Of a stretch of DNA of 36,005 bases, positions 1,513 to 32,423 are shown one piece after another. Under the pieces are notes generated by a model, which did no database searches, was not told where the DNA came from, and saw only the letters and a list, made by a program, of their open reading frames with translations. The DNA lies in the IMG/VR virus record IMGVR_UViG_3300044674_000827, positions 1-36,005 of that record; one strand, 5' to 3'. Position 1 is the stretch's first letter. Every line of letters begins with the position of its first letter. Made by a program: the position numbers and the translations under genes. This DNA is from a virus. Taxonomy: Duplodnaviria > Caudoviricetes.

Positions 1513-3558
1513 ATGAGTAAATTTGCCAAGTTCTTAACATCTTGGTGGATGTGCTTAGTAGTTATAGCAGGATTAACATCTCTAAGAATATCTGATCCTG
1601 TTCCAGTAGAAACTCTCAGACTTAATTGGTTTGATTGGATTATGAAAACTGAACCTGTACATAGTGATCAGGTGGTTCTCATAGAACTTGGTGAAACAAC
1701 TCTTCAGAATACAGGTTATCCTATCAATAGATCTATTTTGGGTAATTACATTATAGATGTATTCAATCAGGGTGGGTTCGTACTAGGAATTAATACTACA
1801 TTTGCTAATCCATCAAATGCTTCCGATGATGAGTTTCTATCTCAAGTACTCCCATATGGTGGAGTCGTACTTTCACAACTACCATCTATCAAAGGTTTAG
1901 ACAGTAAAGCACCTCATGTCGGTACAGGTACTATCGGTGGTGATGCTTTACCTTATCTATACAACTATCCAGGAATTGTAACCAACATTGACATACTAGA
2001 AGATGTTGCTTTTGGTGTGGGAGTAGCAGTAGCACCAAATGATGTGGATGGTAAAGTAAGGCAAGTTCCAGTTTCTATCAATGTAAATGATAAGATCTAT
2101 CCATCGTTTGCTTTAGAGATGGTGCGTAATTTAACAGGAGAACAATCCTATCAGGTCTTTGTAAATGAGTTAGGCATAGAAGCATTTAGAATACCACCAT
2201 ACGATAAAATAGTTACTGATCAAAATGGTAGATTGTATGTAGATTACAAGTATCACTTTGACAGTTATGAATTGGGTAAAGATACCCTGCCCGATTTATC
2301 AGGCAAAGCAGTGATCATGGGTGTATCCGCAGAAGGCATCGTGCCTCAAGTGAATACTCCATATGGAGCAAAACTCCCTCACGAGATTCAAGCAAACATA
2401 TTACAAACAATGCTAGATGGGACTGTAATTAGTCGTCCATCGCTAGTACTGCTCGCAGAAATAATTTCCAGTCTGGTGCTTGGTCTATTGTTGGTATTGA
2501 TAGTATATCGAAGTCCTCTGGTTGTTCAAATACCTTTGGTTGCTTCTTTAACTCTCGGGAGTTATGCTTTATCTGTTTATAGTTATGATTCTTATAAAGT
2601 TTTGATCGACGCAAGTTTTCCTCTCTTGTCGTTATGGGTTATATTTACTCAAGCATCATTTAATAACTTCTATCGTCAGTTTAGATTAAGACAACAGATT
2701 TCAAAGCAGTTCAGTACATATTTATCACCCAAGTTAGTTAAACAACTACAAAAGAATCCTGAGATGCTACAGTTGGGTGGTGAGACCAAACAAATGACTT
2801 ATCTGTTCTGTGACATTAGAGGATTTACTCCCATAAGTGAACAATATAAAACCGACCCACAAGGATTAACGAAACTTATAAATAGATTCCTTACACCCAT
2901 GACGGATATCATTATAAAGAAAGATGGTATGATCGACAAATACATGGGTGACTGTATAATGGCAGTTTGGAATGCACCCTTAGATATAGAGAACCAAGAA
3001 CATAAAGCAGTGTACTCTGCACTTTATATGCTAAACGATTTGAAAGATTTGAATAAAGAACTTACTGAAGAAGGATTACTGCCCATCAACATAGGTATAG
3101 GGATTAACACAGGAGAGGCAGTTGTAGGAAACATGGGTTCTGATCAAAGATTTGATTACTCAGTACTTGGAGATCCTGTAAACTTGGGAGCAAGATTAGA
3201 AGGACAATCAAAAAGTTATGGTGTAGAATTGGTTGTATCAGAAAACACCAAGCAAGGCATAGATGATGATCATCTAACTTGGATTCTGCTTGACAAATTG
3301 ATTGTTAAGGGTAAGAAAGAACCTGTTAACATCTACACTGTATTTGATATTCCTGTGTACAACCATACTGTTAGGGATATAGAAGATGCTTGGGATGCTT
3401 ATGTAAAAGGAGAGTGGGATAAATCTATCAACATATATTCTAAAATCACCTTTTCACCACTTGAAGATTATAGTAAAATAATGGTATCAAGATGTAAAAA
3501 GATGAAACAATCTAACCCAAGCGATTGGGAAGGCATCTGGGAAGCAACTACAAAATAG
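1513..3558 (+). CDS. CHASE2-domain membrane class III adenylate cyclase
   Basis: N-terminal TM, CHASE2-like extracytoplasmic domain (D-x-DG-x-VR; YPSFALE; TPYG...EIQAN), three TMs, then catalytic motifs LFCDIRGFT, DKYMGDCIMA, GIGINTG, FDYSVLGDPVNLGARLE. Lys/Asp specificity pair indicates ATP. Confidence 0.93.
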   Translation: MSKFAKFLTSWWMCLVVIAGLTSLRISDPVPVETLRLNWFDWIMKTEPVHSDQVVLIELGETTLQNTGYPINRSILGNYIIDVFNQGGFVLGINTTFANPSNASDDEFLSQVLPYGGVVLSQLPSIKGLDSKAPHVGTGTIGGDALPYLYNYPGIVTNIDILEDVAFGVGVAVAPNDVDGKVRQVPVSINVNDKIYPSFALEMVRNLTGEQSYQVFVNELGIEAFRIPPYDKIVTDQNGRLYVDYKYHFDSYELGKDTLPDLSGKAVIMGVSAEGIVPQVNTPYGAKLPHEIQANILQTMLDGTVISRPSLVLLAEIISSLVLGLLLVLIVYRSPLVVQIPLVASLTLGSYALSVYSYDSYKVLIDASFPLLSLWVIFTQASFNNFYRQFRLRQQISKQFSTYLSPKLVKQLQKNPEMLQLGGETKQMTYLFCDIRGFTPISEQYKTDPQGLTKLINRFLTPMTDIIIKKDGMIDKYMGDCIMAVWNAPLDIENQEHKAVYSALYMLNDLKDLNKELTEEGLLPINIGIGINTGEAVVGNMGSDQRFDYSVLGDPVNLGARLEGQSKSYGVELVVSENTKQGIDDDHLTWILLDKLIVKGKKEPVNIYTVFDIPVYNHTVRDIEDAWDAYVKGEWDKSINIYSKITFSPLEDYSKIMVSRCKKMKQSNPSDWEGIWEATTK

Positions 3559-7426: not shown

Positions 7427-8048
7427 AGATGTATATCAAAATGTCATCATCGATGTACAACAGCAACTGATAAAAGAATATGGTATAGAGGATCAGCAAT
7501 TACCTCTAACCATAGGTGGGATGGCAACTCCCATAGAAGAACCAGAGTTTAGAACTCTGCCTGAACATGTGGTACAAGATCTTAGGAATAAAGTGCCAGA
7601 TGGTGACTCTGCTGATATTCTACATACTAGAATAGTAGATCATCCATGGGTCTTAGATAACTTTAATCTACATAGACCCATACTCTCATATCTAAAGATG
7701 AAAGCAAATACACCTTATCTGTTACATCTTGATATGCCTATGAGAGCATCAGCAATCACATATGCTACTGATCCAGACTATCCTTTGGATTTGTGTTATG
7801 AAGTTTCAATACCACAATGGGATATATATGGTGAGCATTTAGGGATCATACCTCTTAAAAATTTAAGAAGTTATGAAAATACAATTACAATAAATAGTAG
7901 TACAGCACATATATGCAACTTTATGCTACCACATGGAGTTAAGACTATGAGGGAAGATAAGGGATGCGAAGTTGTACTGTTATACGAACCATGGCTGTCT
8001 TTTACAGACATGCTAAAAAAATACTTTTCTGGAGAACTATTAAAATGA
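7389..8048 (+). CDS. Putative cupin/2OG-Fe(II) oxygenase-fold protein
   Basis: LKMKAN...LHLD (HxD) and distal N-x-x-x-PHGV; no clear 2OG Arg. Confidence 0.5.
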   Translation: MNNKIKPTKVTSEDVYQNVIIDVQQQLIKEYGIEDQQLPLTIGGMATPIEEPEFRTLPEHVVQDLRNKVPDGDSADILHTRIVDHPWVLDNFNLHRPILSYLKMKANTPYLLHLDMPMRASAITYATDPDYPLDLCYEVSIPQWDIYGEHLGIIPLKNLRSYENTITINSSTAHICNFMLPHGVKTMREDKGCEVVLLYEPWLSFTDMLKKYFSGELLK

Positions 8049-8638
8049 GAAGAGACGAACAATTTGTTGAACAAATTAAATTTGACGAAGGTGTCAAGAA
8101 CGATGTATATCTAGATTCTTTAGGACTTAAAACTGTTGGTGTTGGTCACTTGATCAAGGAAGTTGATGGTGGATTAGAAAAACTTGAAGTTGGTGATACA
8201 ATCACTGATGAACAAGTTGAAGAGTTACTACTTGTCGACTTACATGAGCATCATGAAGAATGTAAGCACATGTGGGGCGAAGAAGTCTTCCATGCATTCC
8301 CAGGAGAAATCCAACATATACTACTCAACATGATGTTTAACATGGGACAAACTAGATTATCTGGTTTCAAAAAAATGTTAGCAGCATTAGAGAAAGGTGA
8401 CTATGCAGAAATGGCAGTTCAAATGATGGATTCTAAATGGGCAACTCAAGTTGGACCAAGAGCAACTAGACTCAGAGATAGAGTTGTTGCAGTTGGTAAA
8501 GCAATCGAAGAAGGAGACGAGTACTTTGCTAGTACAGGTTTCTTAGACTTTCTCGAAAGCGACCCAAGAAATCCTGTATTTGTTGAGAAATCGCCAGACG
8601 AAATCCCTGAAGAAAAAAGAAAAGAACTAGGATTATAA
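8045..8638 (+). CDS. e: T4-type lysozyme (GH24) with acidic C-terminal extension
   Basis: DEG...YLDSLG-x-x-TVGVGHL (Glu-Asp-Thr triad), NM-x-FNMG, DSKWATQVGPRATRL; start ATG 8045 after GGAG. Confidence 0.92.
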   Translation: MRRDEQFVEQIKFDEGVKNDVYLDSLGLKTVGVGHLIKEVDGGLEKLEVGDTITDEQVEELLLVDLHEHHEECKHMWGEEVFHAFPGEIQHILLNMMFNMGQTRLSGFKKMLAALEKGDYAEMAVQMMDSKWATQVGPRATRLRDRVVAVGKAIEEGDEYFASTGFLDFLESDPRNPVFVEKSPDEIPEEKRKELGL

Positions 8639-27162: not shown

Positions 27163-27467
27163 ATTGGTTAGAACTACAGACCATATTTCAAAAGATGAAA
27201 GAAGAAGCACCTGTGAACACAACAGGTGCATCTGTAGCAGGTACAGGTGACGATATAGCAACTTGGCGAAAAAAGAAGAAAAAGAAGCATTCTATAGATG
27301 ATAAAGATTTTAAACTTTTTACCAGAACTCAGTTTACAGGTGAGGAGTTTGACAGTATAATTAAAGGTGAGTACAAACTTTTAGAGTTTGATCTTAAAAG
27401 GGGATACACAGTATTCCTTGAAAATAAACAAACAGGTGAGATTAAAGAGTTATGTCTAAAATCTTAA
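27159..27467 (+). CDS. Conserved late hypothetical protein
   Basis: EEAP-x-N-x-x-G-x-x-VAGTGDD followed by a Lys run. Confidence 0.7.
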   Translation: MNWLELQTIFQKMKEEAPVNTTGASVAGTGDDIATWRKKKKKKHSIDDKDFKLFTRTQFTGEEFDSIIKGEYKLLEFDLKRGYTVFLENKQTGEIKELCLKS

Positions 27468-27880
27468 TGGGTGCATTGGCAATGGTTTGCCTTTCATTCT
27501 TTTTATACTACAATTACACTTCTAGCAAGATTGATGCACTTATGGGTGATATAAGTAGGGCAGTTGCAAATGAAGCGAAATTTAGAGACGAAATCGCAGG
27601 TTTAAATGCGAATTTGGAACAAATTAAGGGCAATTTTGAGCAAATGCAGAAGGCAAATTCAGAGTTGACTCAAAAGGCAAGGGATGCTGATAAAGCAATC
27701 AAAGACCTCTCTAATAAGTATGCTGGGCACGATATGGATAGACTTACTTTAGGCAAACCTGGACTCATTGAAAAGATTATTAATAAAGGCACGAAAGACG
27801 TGTTCAAAGAAATAAGTGATTTGACTGATCCCGATAATTATGAAAAAGATAATACCAATAATACTCCTGACAACGATTAG
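27452..27880 (+). CDS. Inner-membrane spanin (Rz/PseT.3-like)
   Basis: N-terminal TM, coiled coil, KPGLIEK-x-IN; overlaps a lipoprotein gene. Confidence 0.8.
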   Translation: MSKILMGALAMVCLSFFLYYNYTSSKIDALMGDISRAVANEAKFRDEIAGLNANLEQIKGNFEQMQKANSELTQKARDADKAIKDLSNKYAGHDMDRLTLGKPGLIEKIINKGTKDVFKEISDLTDPDNYEKDNTNNTPDND

Positions 27881-28217
27881 TGGCTGCTCCATTCTGGGTG
27901 GTTATACTCCACAGATATCCCCTGTAGAAGTCAATCGAGTATCGATGCAGATACCTATGTATCACCCTCCTATGCCAGATGGTGTTACCATGCAGGATAT
28001 CAAGTGGAAAGTTCTAACTCCTACGATTATGAAAGAGTATCTAGAACTAGTTGAGGAAGGCAAAGCACCTGAATTAGCATATTATGCTTTAAGTCCTGAT
28101 GATTATAAGACTCTGAGTTATAACACTGCAGAGATGAGAGCATACATCATCAAAGTGATTTCAATTGTTGAATACTATAGAGATCTAGAAAAAGAAATCG
28201 AACAACTCAACGACTAA
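27840..28217 (+). CDS. Outer-membrane spanin lipoprotein (Rz1/PseT.2-like)
   Basis: Lipobox ISGC, Pro-rich linker, Y-x-x-LS-x-N-x-AE-x-R-x-YI...YY. Confidence 0.8.
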   Translation: MKKIIPIILLTTISGCSILGGYTPQISPVEVNRVSMQIPMYHPPMPDGVTMQDIKWKVLTPTIMKEYLELVEEGKAPELAYYALSPDDYKTLSYNTAEMRAYIIKVISIVEYYRDLEKEIEQLND

Positions 28218-28259: not shown

Positions 28260-29255
28260 ATGACATTATGGTTAGAGAAAAAGTATTTGCGTCTGGTAAG
28301 CACTAGATTTCAAAATGCTAAATGGAAGACAGAAGATTTATTTAACCATAGTTGCCCATATTGTGGCGATAGTGATAAGAATGATTACAAAGCAAGAGGT
28401 TATCACTTCTTGTACAAAAATAGTTATGTTTATAAATGTCATAACTGTGGATACTCTACAGGATTTAAAAACTTCTTAAAAGAACAAGACAAGATACTCT
28501 ATAAAGAGTTTGTTAAAGAAGCATATGGTGGAAAGAGAGAACAGAAACTACCACCATCTCATGCCTTTAAACCAAAGTTCAAACCCAAACACCCTTTGTC
28601 AAAGATATGCCAAAAAGCGAAGGATGTGGATGAAGCAAGAATCTATTTAGAAAGTCGAAACATTCCTAAAGACAAGTGGGATGACATTTGGTTCATTAGA
28701 AATGCTCAAGAACTAAGTAGTATATGCGATAAGTATCGTGAGAGAATCTTAGGCAATGATGCGAGAATCATCTTGCCTTTCTACTCTCTTAATGGTACTC
28801 TTATAGGCATCACAGGTCGTGCTATAGGTGACAGTCGTCTCAGGTATCTAACTATGAAGTTTGATGATGACGAAGCACTTATCTATAATCAAAATAAGAT
28901 TGATCGATCTAACACTATCTATGTGACAGAAGGACCAATAGATAGTTTATTCCTGCCTAACAGCATCGCTGTAGCAGGATCTGACTTTGGAAAACTAGAT
29001 GAAGAACTTAAAGAACAAGCAATCATCATTTATGATAATGAGTCCAGATCCAAAGAAATTCTAAATAAACTTTCGCATGTCATCGATAATGGATGGCAGG
29101 TAGTCATATGGGATGACAAAAGAATCAGCGATTACAAAGACATTAATGAAATGGTTAATGCGATTGGTATAGATACAGTCATGGAGATTATAAATAACAA
29201 TGTCTTTTCAGGACTATCAGCAAAATTAAAACTAAAGCAATATAAGAGGACATAA
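28260..29255 (+). CDS. 61: DNA primase (gp61)
   Basis: CPYCGDS...CHNC zinc ribbon; TOPRIM YVTEGPIDS, YDNE, KDINEM. Confidence 0.96.
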   Translation: MTLWLEKKYLRLVSTRFQNAKWKTEDLFNHSCPYCGDSDKNDYKARGYHFLYKNSYVYKCHNCGYSTGFKNFLKEQDKILYKEFVKEAYGGKREQKLPPSHAFKPKFKPKHPLSKICQKAKDVDEARIYLESRNIPKDKWDDIWFIRNAQELSSICDKYRERILGNDARIILPFYSLNGTLIGITGRAIGDSRLRYLTMKFDDDEALIYNQNKIDRSNTIYVTEGPIDSLFLPNSIAVAGSDFGKLDEELKEQAIIIYDNESRSKEILNKLSHVIDNGWQVVIWDDKRISDYKDINEMVNAIGIDTVMEIINNNVFSGLSAKLKLKQYKRT

Positions 29256-31561
29256 TGGAAGGGATTTCAATTGTTAAAAGAGACGGAGCGAAAGAGGAAC
29301 TTAATCTAGATAAGATACATAAAATGGTAACTGCTGCCTGTAAAGATATAACAGGTGTATCAGAATCTCAAGTAGAGATGAACAGTGGTCTTCAGTTTTA
29401 TGACGGAATTACATCTACCGATATTCAAAACATTCTTATCAAATCAGCATCAGACTTGATCTCATTAGAGAATCCAAACTATCAGTATGTTGCTGCCAGA
29501 CTACTCTTATTCCTTATAAGAAAACAAGTCTTTAATACAAAGTGGAAAGATCAAGATATCTATCCACCCATGAAAGAATTAGTGGAAAGAAACATCGAGA
29601 AAGGTGTTTACGATTCAACATTAGTAACTTACTTTGATGATGAAGAATGGAAAAAAATAGATTCATTCATTCGTCATGATAGAGACCTAGAATTTACATA
29701 TGCTGGTTTGAGACAAGTGGTAGATAAGTATCTAGTACAAGACAGATCAGATAACACAGTTTTTGAGACACCTCAATTTATGTACATGGGTATTGCCTGT
29801 GTATTGTTTAAGAACTATCCTAAAGAAAAGAGGTTGTCATACATAAAGAGGTATTACGATGCAATTAGCACATTTAAAATCAATATTCCGACACCGATTA
29901 TGGCAGGGGTACGAACTCCTCTTAGACAGTTTGCGTCATGTGTTCTTGTTGATTCTGACGATACTTTGGGTTCTATCTTTAGTAGTGATATGGCTGTTGG
30001 TCGTTATGTGGCTCAAAGGGCAGGAATTGGTATCAATGCTGGTCGGATCCGTGGGATCGGTTCGAAAATTCGAGGAGGAGAGGTTCAACATACAGGGGTT
30101 ATCCCATTCCTTAAAAAGTTTGAAGCAACAGTTCGGTGCTGCACTCAGAATGGAGTTCGAGGTGGTTCAGCAACAGTGCATTTCCCTATATGGCATTCTG
30201 AAATCGAAGATATCCTCGTTCTTAAAAACAACAAAGGATCAGAAGACAACCGAGTCAGAAAACTCGACTACAGTATCCAACTCAGTAAACTCTTCTACGA
30301 AAGATTCTTAAGTGATGGTGAGATAACTCTATTCTCACCTCATGATGTTCCAGGATTGTACGATGCCTTTGGTACACCTGAGTTTGACGAGATGTATGAG
30401 AAGTATGAGAGAGCAACTTCAGTACCCAAAAAGAAAGTAAGTGCTAGAGAACTGATTACTGATTTGCTCAAAGAAAGAGCAGAAACAGGTCGTATCTATA
30501 TTATGAATATCGATCACTCTAACAGTCATAGTTCTTTCTTAGATAAAGTCAATATGAGTAATCTATGTCAAGAGATCACTTTACCCACAGTTCCATTAGA
30601 ACATATTGATGGAGAGGGTGAAATTGCTTTATGTATTCTCTCAGCAATTAATGTGGGTACACTTAAAGATGATCTTTCCGAATTACCTAATCTATGTGAA
30701 TTGGCAGTACGAGGATTAGAAGAAGTTATAGATTACCAAAGATATCCTGTCGTTGCTGCTGAACGATCTACTAAGTCTAGAAGATCATTAGGAATAGGAT
30801 ACATTGGTCTTGCTCATTACTTAGCAAGACATAAAGTTAAGTATGATGATCCACAAGCATGGAAAATTGTTCACGATCTTACCGAATCATTCCAGTATCA
30901 TTTACTTAAAGCATCTAATGAATTAGCAAAAGAAAAGGGTACATGCGAAGGATACGAAAGAACAAAATACAGTCAGGGATTACTTCCTATAGATCATTAT
31001 AAGAAAGAAGTTGATGATCTTGTAGCACCCAAGTACAATTGTGATTGGAATGCTTTAAGAAAAGATATTAAAGAACACGGACTAAGACATTCTACACTTA
31101 CAGCACAAATGCCTAGTGAGTCATCATCTGTAGTATCTAATGAGACAAATGGTATTGAACCACCAAGAGATTTCTTATCTGTTAAGAAGTCAAAGAAAGG
31201 ACCATTGAAACAAATCGTTCCTGGATATAAAAAGTTAATGTCTTATTACACTTTGCTATGGGATATGCCTAACAATGATGGGTACATTAAAGTGGTGGCA
31301 GTAATGCAGAAGTTCTTTGATCAAGCAATTTCAGGTAATTGGTCATACAATCCTGAGAACTATGATAACAACGAAGTACCTATTTCTAGTATGGCAACTG
31401 ACTTACTCAATACATATAAGTATGGATGGAAAACTTCATATTATCAAAACACTTATGATATGAAGACAGATGATAGTGTGGTTGAAGAAGTAGAGGTTAT
31501 AAATACACCTGCTTCTGAAGACCCATTTGAACAGGAAGAATGTGATGCGTGCAATATCTAG
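29255..31561 (+). CDS. nrdA: Class Ia ribonucleotide reductase alpha subunit
   Basis: ATP cone VKRDG; RQFASC; SNLCQEI; LCIL; MPSESSS; C-terminal YY and CDAC. Confidence 0.98.
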   Translation: MEGISIVKRDGAKEELNLDKIHKMVTAACKDITGVSESQVEMNSGLQFYDGITSTDIQNILIKSASDLISLENPNYQYVAARLLLFLIRKQVFNTKWKDQDIYPPMKELVERNIEKGVYDSTLVTYFDDEEWKKIDSFIRHDRDLEFTYAGLRQVVDKYLVQDRSDNTVFETPQFMYMGIACVLFKNYPKEKRLSYIKRYYDAISTFKINIPTPIMAGVRTPLRQFASCVLVDSDDTLGSIFSSDMAVGRYVAQRAGIGINAGRIRGIGSKIRGGEVQHTGVIPFLKKFEATVRCCTQNGVRGGSATVHFPIWHSEIEDILVLKNNKGSEDNRVRKLDYSIQLSKLFYERFLSDGEITLFSPHDVPGLYDAFGTPEFDEMYEKYERATSVPKKKVSARELITDLLKERAETGRIYIMNIDHSNSHSSFLDKVNMSNLCQEITLPTVPLEHIDGEGEIALCILSAINVGTLKDDLSELPNLCELAVRGLEEVIDYQRYPVVAAERSTKSRRSLGIGYIGLAHYLARHKVKYDDPQAWKIVHDLTESFQYHLLKASNELAKEKGTCEGYERTKYSQGLLPIDHYKKEVDDLVAPKYNCDWNALRKDIKEHGLRHSTLTAQMPSESSSVVSNETNGIEPPRDFLSVKKSKKGPLKQIVPGYKKLMSYYTLLWDMPNNDGYIKVVAVMQKFFDQAISGNWSYNPENYDNNEVPISSMATDLLNTYKYGWKTSYYQNTYDMKTDDSVVEEVEVINTPASEDPFEQEECDACNI
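29859..30311 (+). CDS. Candidate overprinted single-TM protein in the +1 frame of nrdA
   Basis: 150 open codons; SD GAGG 29848-29851; TM VFLLILTILWVLSLVVIWLLVVMWL; nrdA codon usage shifts over the overlap. Confidence 0.45.
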   Translation: MQLAHLKSIFRHRLWQGYELLLDSLRHVFLLILTILWVLSLVVIWLLVVMWLKGQELVSMLVGSVGSVRKFEEERFNIQGLSHSLKSLKQQFGAALRMEFEVVQQQCISLYGILKSKISSFLKTTKDQKTTESENSTTVSNSVNSSTKDS

Positions 31562-32423
31562 AGTATTGAACAAAGAAGGAATAACACCTACTGCCGAAAC
31601 CTTTAGACGCAATAGATTTGTAGTTCTTAGAAACTTTATTCCTCAGGGAATGATAGAATTCGCAAGGCACTGTTGGTTGAGAACTGAAAATTCCCAAGAA
31701 TGGGGTAGTTCTAAGCAACAAGAACGATCAGTTGTAGATACACCTGATGGTGCTGGTAAACAAATAGAATATGTATCAGAGCATATGGCAAATGTTCCTT
31801 TTGGCGAAGCAATGTTGCTAATGTTGAAAGAACCTTTACAAGATGCATTAGAATTAGAACTAGTACCAACTTACAGTTTTGCTAGAACATACTTTAGAGA
31901 TGCTAAATTATTTGGGCATACAGATAGACCAAGTTGTGAAGTGTCTATGACATTCCCCATAGAATATGAAACAGATGACAAGAAACCATGGTCAATATGG
32001 GTATTAGCAGATCAAAATTATGTGGGTGTTGATTACCAAGAAGCATGGGATACAGTACAAGGTAAAAACTTTGAAGAAAGATTTAAGATGGGTGCTGCGA
32101 GAGTCTATCTTGAACCTGGAGATGTATTAGCATATCAAGGATGTAATGCTATACACTGGAGAGATAAACTTGTCGGCAAATATTCTAGACATATTTTTAC
32201 TCACTATGTTGATAAGAATGGTCCTCTATTTAATGGTTGCAATGAATTAGCATTTGATGGTAGACGAAGTATCTATGATGATCATGACCATTCTACGATA
32301 GCAGAACAAAGAAAAAACAAATATGGAGCAGAACTGAATAAAAGAGGTGAGGTTGCTATGCGTGCATGTGCAAACATAACAGATCCTCATACTAACGAAG
32401 CAATATTACATGACGATATTTAA
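31545..32423 (+). CDS. 2OG-Fe(II) oxygenase inserted between nrdA and nrdB
   Basis: PTYSFAR-x-Y, HTDRPSCE-x-S-x-T, LEPGD-x-L-x-YQGC...HWR, F-x-HYV. Confidence 0.88.
   Translation: MRAISRVLNKEGITPTAETFRRNRFVVLRNFIPQGMIEFARHCWLRTENSQEWGSSKQQERSVVDTPDGAGKQIEYVSEHMANVPFGEAMLLMLKEPLQDALELELVPTYSFARTYFRDAKLFGHTDRPSCEVSMTFPIEYETDDKKPWSIWVLADQNYVGVDYQEAWDTVQGKNFEERFKMGAARVYLEPGDVLAYQGCNAIHWRDKLVGKYSRHIFTHYVDKNGPLFNGCNELAFDGRRSIYDDHDHSTIAEQRKNKYGAELNKRGEVAMRACANITDPHTNEAILHDDI

Follow-up and report, generated by a model that had tools for sequence, protein, structure and literature searches.

A predicted membrane-protein gene nested in the +1 frame of nrdA of marine T4-like phages, with a possible role in lysis timing

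Results

A long stop-free +1 frame in the nrdA gene of the window

The stretch of DNA analysed here (the window, 36,005 nucleotides) is a 36-kb fragment of an aquatic T4-like phage which carries polymerase, helicase and primase genes together with nrdA and nrdB, and its NrdA is about 72% identical to cyanomyovirus NrdA. Within nrdA, the +1 frame contains an ORF that lies over the final part of the all-alpha domain and the first part of the barrel of NrdA, and the Shine-Dalgarno-like GAGG that the first-pass annotation had placed 7 nt before the ATG at 29859 is indeed there. The features of the locus are collected in Table 1.

Table 1. Features of the nested ORF, of nrdA and of the lysis-related context genes (positions in the window)
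Feature	Position	Strand	Basis or remark
Endolysin or tail-lysozyme-like gene	7964-8638		phrog_7; ~19 kb from the spanins
i-spanin (Rz-like), context gene	27452..27880	+	phrog_739, E 2e-12
o-spanin (Rz1-like lipoprotein), context gene	27840..28217	+	phrog_812, E 6e-12; lipobox
TATAAATA, T4-type late-promoter motif	29189..29196	+	66 nt before nrdA; lineage-specific
nrdA, class Ia ribonucleotide reductase alpha subunit, overprinted ancestral frame	29255..31561	+	Pfam ATP-cone, lgN, lgC
Likely dead ancestral start region of the nested ORF	29830..29846	+	sequence; 'vestigial' is our interpretation
Shine-Dalgarno-like GAGG	29848..29851	+	sequence; 7 nt 5' of the ATG; from nrdA codons AAG AGG (K198-R199)
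Nested ORF, 150 aa, +1 frame of nrdA codons 202-351	29859..30311	+	ORF list, nrdA homologue comparison
Predicted transmembrane segment V28-L52	29940..30014	+	Kyte-Doolittle versus null; AF2 helix
Helical/amphipathic tail of conserved length, to nrdA codon 317	30015..30206	+	codon 317 is the stop in many relatives
Ser/Thr/Lys-rich C-terminal extension, lineage-specific	30207..30311	+	ends of relatives vary, codon 317 to 357

The stop-free +1 run of the window nrdA measures 154 codons, while the next longest same-strand shadow runs in the 37 genes of the window measure 74, 74, 71 and 65 codons, in agreement with the earlier observation that this frame is far longer than other shadow ORFs. When codons 198-351 were resampled synonymously, 9.4 stops were expected and none was seen (P(0)=2.7e-6); a context-aware null gave a similar figure for the region (9.1 stops expected, P=3e-6) and closely matched the rest of nrdA (41 stops observed versus 42.8 expected). 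Of 20000 draws, 2 or 23, according to the codon table used, contained a run of equal length anywhere in nrdA; for the 37 genes and both shifted frames together, the figure was 20 of 1500 draws. The codon-shuffle check proposed with the first-pass annotation thus returns about 3e-6 at the site and about 0.013 window-wide; therefore, the window by itself is only suggestive of a nested gene, and it is the comparison with relatives that decides.

Codon use is shifted in the nested region with respect to the rest of nrdA. Specifically, CGN accounts for 8/13 Arg codons versus 4/23, CCG for 2/5 versus 0/26, CGG occurs twice versus never and TCG once versus never. The earlier claim that otherwise scarce codons accumulate here therefore stands for CGN Arg and CCG and falls for GCG, which is not enriched (1/9 in the region versus 2/30 elsewhere in nrdA). 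Inspection by eye revealed no conserved slippery site for a frameshift fusion to NrdA.

The +1 frame is kept open in most of the marine T4-like phages examined

NrdA homologues were mapped codon by codon onto the window nrdA. The first set comprised 98 loci, which gave 78 distinct viral nrdA copies spanning codons 202-316 with enough flank, and the expected number of open copies was computed from the codon use of each copy. No +1 stop occurred in codons 202-316 in 54 of the 78 copies, against 0.56 expected. Seven of the 78 had been found with the nested protein as query; the loci retrieved with NrdA alone gave 48/71 open. Outside the nested region, the +1 stops observed in the 78 copies match those expected. 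Stop counts are bimodal, with 18 of the 78 copies carrying 3-10 stops, and the NrdA sequence therefore does not force the frame to be open. For replication, metagenomes were scanned with NrdA as query; this replication set had 80 loci and included 74 new copies, of which 41 were open versus 0.47 expected.

Among cultured marine T4-like phages (Kyanoviridae/Eurybiavirus; cyano- and pelagiphages) the frame is open in 14/15, including the model phages P-SSM2, P-SSM4, S-PM2, P-HM1 and HTVC008M; the exception, ACG-2014f, has one stop at codon 282. The nested ORF is annotated in none of the 15 marine GenBank records examined. Phage-like contigs in genome bins gave 9/16 open, while the controls T4, KVP40, RB43 and Pseudomonas phage 30-3 gave 0/4 and bacterial nrdA 1/62 (0.74 expected). 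At least two +1 stops break the frame in 27/106 copies.

The depletion of +1 stops extends over every possible stop site, from codon 204 to codon 301. The commonest end of the frame is codon 317 (24 of the 54 open copies) and ends reach codon 357, with a minimum length of about 115 codons kept among open copies. NTA codons are scarcer in the region before pyrimidines as well (0.18 vs 0.39), so that stop avoidance is not the sole codon shift. An antisense or +2 gene was rejected as the cause, as the other frames are not depleted apart from a single antisense bin (0.18), which probably reflects the avoidance of TTA/CTA.

A profile of the nested protein searched against 1.84 billion proteins returned 151 hits; 150 were the +1 frame of nrdA and the remaining one an unrelated repeat protein, so that this search yielded no stand-alone homologue or ancestor. 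Assembled RNA contigs from four studies cover the region, and contigs of this kind cannot show frame, strand or level.

Two further +1 signals were noted in nrdA. In cyanophages, a second and weaker stop depletion lies at codons ~601-654 (window ~31055-31216; L179-L195), with an observed/expected ratio of 0.33 in one bin; this frame reads as a Cys-rich peptide, shows no common ATG and is closed in the window. In addition, three protein records from a more distant nrdA group (P0085, P0087 and P0122) have +1 ORFs of 151-182 aa over the same nrdA region as the nested ORF, which start about 55 codons earlier and have no TM.

Start codon and Shine-Dalgarno sequence often turn over together

The usual start in relatives is an ATG at nrdA codon 196, usable in 57 of 75 open copies, and codon 202 was accordingly discarded as the family start, the start having shifted in the lineage of the window. 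The 75 open copies divide into 25 with ATG at both 196 and 201/202, 32 with 196 only, 18 with the later ATG only and none with neither (Fisher p 1e-5); a usable ATG is thus present in 75/75. Of 27 closed copies, 3 have neither. The replication set likewise showed a usable ATG in 41/41 open copies, with p 0.16 for its start table alone.

A Shine-Dalgarno-like word in codons 196-200 was found in 10/18 late-start versus 4/57 early-start open copies, and in 6/8 versus 0/33 of the replication set. The ten late-start cases amount to about four independent ones, since five of them belong to the clade of the window. The window itself appears to record such a switch: GAGG at 29830-33 is followed after 7 nt by ACA at 29841-43 (nrdA codon 196, where most relatives have ATG), by TAA at 29844-46, and then by the new GAGG and ATG. 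We infer that the upstream GAGG/ACA site is vestigial.

In conclusion, the conservation check suggested for start, Shine-Dalgarno sequence and open frame came out in favour of a real embedded gene, as had first been proposed: the frame is open in 54/78 and 41/74 copies, all open copies have an ATG, start and Shine-Dalgarno compensation recurs across the clade, and the hydrophobicity of the TM segment exceeds its null expectation (see below). We consider it very probable that the nested gene is real, and likely that its translation begins at its own start, on the nrdA message.

The product is a predicted single-pass membrane protein with a helical tail

To compare hydropathy, a null was built by holding the +1 frame open and the NrdA sequence fixed (300 draws). 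Owing to the T-rich third positions of nrdA, the TM segment has a null hydropathy of about 1.0-1.2 from the outset, and the caveat that such a frame may look hydrophobic by chance is to that extent justified; it does not account for the window, where codons 229-250 have a mean Kyte-Doolittle value of 3.12 versus a null of 1.05 (z 3.5) and the peak hydropathy of the segment is reached in 0/300 draws. The proposed single long TM is therefore supported, as the predicted segment V28-L52. The segment lies above the null in the 65 TM-type rows, a partly circular result as the class is defined by hydropathy, and the two TM flanks lie below it in 50 and 55 of these 65 rows. Hydropathy is thus shaped beyond what NrdA forces.

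A C-terminal tail is also present; of the ~100 soluble residues first described, only ~65 aa form the conserved part, and these are predicted to be helical. The heptad moment of the tail exceeds the null in 58/66 TM copies and 18/24 soluble copies (related rows), with z 1.2 in the window. Charge on the C-terminal flank of the TM exceeds that on the N-terminal flank in 50/65 TM copies, partly because NrdA forces it; from these charges, an N-out/C-in topology is likely in most members, the window protein itself being ambiguous. AlphaFold models the window protein as two long helices (mean pLDDT 65, pTM 0.27), with the helix over the TM reaching block pLDDT values of 86-93 (residues 21-50). The soluble form found in a sister clade is modelled as a two-helix hairpin (pLDDT 75, pTM 0.53; 82-91 over residues 21-100). 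In the product of the window gene we therefore see a predicted single-pass membrane protein with a helical tail. Some members of the pelagiphage clade (L008, L011, L013, L015, L022, L046 and L048) have a second N-terminal hydrophobic segment (z 2.3-3.5), that is, a two-TM layout.

Compared with close relatives, the ORF shows a synonymous divergence of about 13% and the flanking bins one of about 21-43%, and the synonymous ratio in the clade of the window is about 0.45, both figures coming from mosaic genomes. Family-wide, the median ratio is 0.83 for open (30 pairs, partly non-independent) versus 0.96 for closed copies (23 pairs; p 0.035), and the soluble form shows no constraint (0.97). The synonymous constraint looked for is hence apparent in the clade of the window, subject to that mosaicism, modest family-wide and absent from the soluble form; selection therefore keeps frame, start and hydropathy more than sequence. 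The mosaic structure of nrdA itself is visible in comparison with L086 and L088: L088 equals the window after codon 353 and shows about 40% synonymous divergence before codon 197.

Scans of 61-73 members against Pfam, PHROG and NCBIfam assigned the nested protein to no family. In particular, no holin family matched the window protein or 61 members (Pfam, PHROG and also the NCBIfam holin models), so that the likeness to T4 holin T suggested by the first-pass annotation is reduced to layout only, no holin model of the three collections matching at a meaningful level. Foldseek gave 0 hits in viral and PDB sets for the window model and only generic helical hairpins for the soluble model (best E 0.013). 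The best E of a PDB sequence search was 0.37, the ESM Atlas search returned no usable match, and a word search produced three unnamed matches, none usable.

Origin, losses and a soluble sister form

The history of the frame was followed on an NrdA tree of 114 rows, calculated with FastTree after leaving out the overlap columns. The frame is closed in the outgroups and in the six basal phage rows. It is open in 41/42 tree rows of the cyanomyovirus clade, mostly open, with several losses, in the pelagiphage clade, and open with a strong TM in the clade of the window. The sister clade either encodes a soluble, acidic version or no longer has the frame. In all, the frame changes state 14 times on this tree, the simplest reading being one origin followed by losses, which rests on a fast tree and on the chosen outgroup. 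From the closed frame in the nrdA copies of bacteria, enteric phages and basal rows we infer that the gene arose de novo by overprinting, close to the root of the marine T4-like clade.

In the sister clade, 24/58 loci keep the frame intact or nearly so, 0 of them with a TM, and the soluble form keeps its start; a pore is therefore not the only thing selected. The loci with the soluble acidic helical hairpin are L023, L027, L028, L031, L033, L035, L036, L040, L041, L110 and L204-L264.

Neighbouring genes and promoters

The overlapping spanin pair lies directly 5' of the primase gene (27452-28217) and suggests a Gram-negative host; the spanins are two genes upstream of nrdA, on the same strand. 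The 36-kb fragment carries spanins and a lysozyme, and no other holin was recognised in it; one may be encoded elsewhere in the genome, of which the window covers a part. The nested protein was also considered as an i-spanin and rejected, given that it matches no spanin PHROG and that separate i- and o-spanins coexist with the TM form in 5/5 loci.

More generally, the slot 5' of primase is occupied by envelope genes: spanins in the window, DUF7201 in cyano- and pelagiphages (for example L055:1439-1843, L111:512-934 and L039:1597-2004) and a multi-TM protein in the sister clade. DUF7201 (phrog_451) comprises a coiled coil and a C-terminal TM and gave a weak holin PHROG hit (E 0.007) in 1/5 tested, which makes it a separate holin-like candidate in these phages. 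The sister-clade protein shows three TM, a coiled coil and a further TM (L003:848-1660, L026:475-1659), exists in short (~272 aa) and long (~390 aa) forms and has no family match. The intact TM form of the nested ORF occurs in 36/39 loci with DUF7201 and 5/5 with i-spanin, a single clade contrast and not a proof, and a nested ORF with a TM in 0/58 loci with the multi-TM protein upstream. A link between the long or short multi-TM form and an intact soluble ORF was rejected (raw 17/24 vs 5/29; independent pairs on the FastTree tree, median p 1).

The strict late motif upstream of nrdA was found in 3/51 TM-type, 0/48 closed and 0/24 soluble-type loci. No sigma-70 promoter was detected on the + strand, and an internal late promoter, GATAAATA at codon 157, was discarded, not being enriched (17/64 vs 23.8 expected).

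Two other genes of the window deserve mention. A 298-aa gene between nrdA and nrdB (31527-32423), preceded by TATAAATA at 31498, carries the PHROG label 'ferrochelatase' and resembles a 2OG-Fe oxygenase. At 1513-3558 this phage encodes a CHASE2 plus adenylate/guanylate cyclase protein.

Discussion

The explanation that we tentatively favour is that the nested +1 gene encodes a predicted inner-membrane protein that likely acts at the host membrane and may take part in lysis timing. Ribosomes would initiate internally on the primase-nrdA message, giving rise to a small inner-membrane protein with a helical tail, and this protein would help to time or trigger lysis in a holin-like or antiholin-like manner. 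The lysis-timing role is our leading proposal and, at the same time, its least certain part, to be taken with still greater reserve. Low sequence constraint with conserved hydropathy fits holins; we rank lysis timing first because of this holin-like weak constraint, the existence of embedded +1 lysis genes with Shine-Dalgarno sequence and TM, and the missing r genes. With regard to the latter, T4 r genes are reported to be missing in cyanomyoviruses (PMC2984593). Further pointers are the lack of another recognised holin in the window beside spanins and lysozyme, the same-strand spanins upstream and the late motif before nrdA. The proximity of the spanins is weak evidence, since those of T4 are also located away from its holin (PMC6139136). 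The soluble form, the losses, DUF7201 and an expression that likely falls in the replication phase weigh against lysis; the soluble sister version and the repeated losses also speak against a holin essential to every member. A more far-reaching version seems doubtful to us: marine T4-like phages would have an unrecognised holin or lysis timer that was born de novo in the nrdA core and kept since early clade history, moved its start and Shine-Dalgarno sequence several times and became soluble, or was lost, where another membrane protein took over.

Known systems provide partial parallels. Lysis gene E of phiX174 lies in the +1 frame of the essential gene D, has its own Shine-Dalgarno sequence and encodes a single-TM protein with an N-terminal TM; this protein is an inhibitor of MraY, and the phage is a tiny one with ssDNA. 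The nested ORF shares the single TM, the +1 overprint of an essential gene and the Shine-Dalgarno sequence of its own; unlike E, it sits in a core metabolic enzyme gene of a large dsDNA phage, and its TM follows about 30 residues. T4 holin T and antiholin RI have one TM, a short N-terminal and a longer C-terminal soluble part; the nested protein, also of a T4-like phage, has the same layout, but differs in having no profile match, a predicted all-helical tail of ~65-100 aa and a nested gene, the +1 frame of T4's own nrdA being closed.

The sgl genes of ssRNA phages resemble it as de novo ORFs with Shine-Dalgarno sequence and TM in the +1 frame of an enzyme gene (rep), whose sequences hardly resemble anything else; 21/33 active sgls lie in the +1 frame of rep, sgls mostly occupy its poorly conserved parts, and they arise repeatedly (PMC7693330). 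The nested ORF, unlike these, lies in a highly conserved part of nrdA, had seemingly one origin and persisted, in a phage with spanins and lysozyme. Like lambda Rz1 in Rz (PMC6139136), it is fully nested and missed by annotation; unlike Rz1, a lipoprotein inside its partner's gene, the nested protein has no lipobox and the window has separate spanins.

Among the other explanations, the one that survives best is also, in our judgement, somewhat unlikely: a real nested gene for a replication-phase effector of the host envelope, acting through the helical hairpin in superinfection exclusion or to inhibit a membrane complex or a defence sensor of the host, with the TM as an anchor that one clade dropped. 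The soluble form, kept with its start in the sister clade and confidently modelled as a hairpin, the heptad amphipathicity of the tail in both forms, the repeated frame loss, which fits a host-dependent accessory role, and the co-transcription with a replication gene all speak for it; on the other hand, the searches gave no target, family or fold match, and the soluble form is free of synonymous constraint.

That the nested protein works for ribonucleotide reductase or the replisome, which it would tether to the membrane or regulate, being produced at a fixed ratio to NrdA from the same message, we regard as improbable. Obligate co-transcription with nrdA, the position of the overlap where the all-alpha domain gives way to the barrel, and a predicted C-in tail facing the cytoplasm would suit it, but NrdA is equally conserved in open and closed sister lineages, the frame is repeatedly lost while nrdA stays, and an overlap can arise anywhere and does not imply partnership.

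Quite improbable, too, is that the act of translating the +1 frame is what is selected (to protect the mRNA, to bring the transcript to the membrane or to tune how much NrdA is made), with a product of little importance: the strongly kept frame and start, the weak sequence constraint and the variable ORF ends agree with this, while the clade-specific shaping of hydropathy, the kept minimum of ~115 codons and a helical periodicity above the null oppose it. Finally, a shadow ORF that arose by chance or merely follows from local codon bias, with which the modest window-wide probability, the NTA scarcity before pyrimidines and the T-rich third positions would be compatible, is highly improbable and already contradicted by the comparative counts, as 95/152 distinct copies are open versus ~1 expected, 4-10 stops are found in close relatives whose NrdA is the same, so that openness is not forced by the protein, and start and Shine-Dalgarno sequence compensate across relatives.

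A literature search, with subscription papers and proteomics/TSS supplements outside its scope, retrieved no publication on a gene nested in phage nrdA; likewise, the sections of PMC12801897, PMC1079782 and PMC2984593 covered by our search terms contain neither the word 'holin' nor any mention of the nested gene. Overprinted membrane proteins are already known; a clade-wide one in the conserved nrdA core of a large dsDNA phage did not appear in the literature searched and seems to be unreported. To this picture the window contributes a non-cyanophage lineage with spanins and the start/Shine-Dalgarno shift, along with the controls, the replication set and the soluble sister form.

If our reading is true, a near-core gene has been missed in one of the most abundant virus groups, and the synonymous sites of nrdA in this region would then not be neutral. 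Marine T4-like phages, in which the machinery of lysis or exclusion is poorly defined, would gain a concrete and testable candidate in the nested gene. A single tree would moreover show cleanly how a gene arises de novo, shifts its start site, changes localisation and is repeatedly lost.
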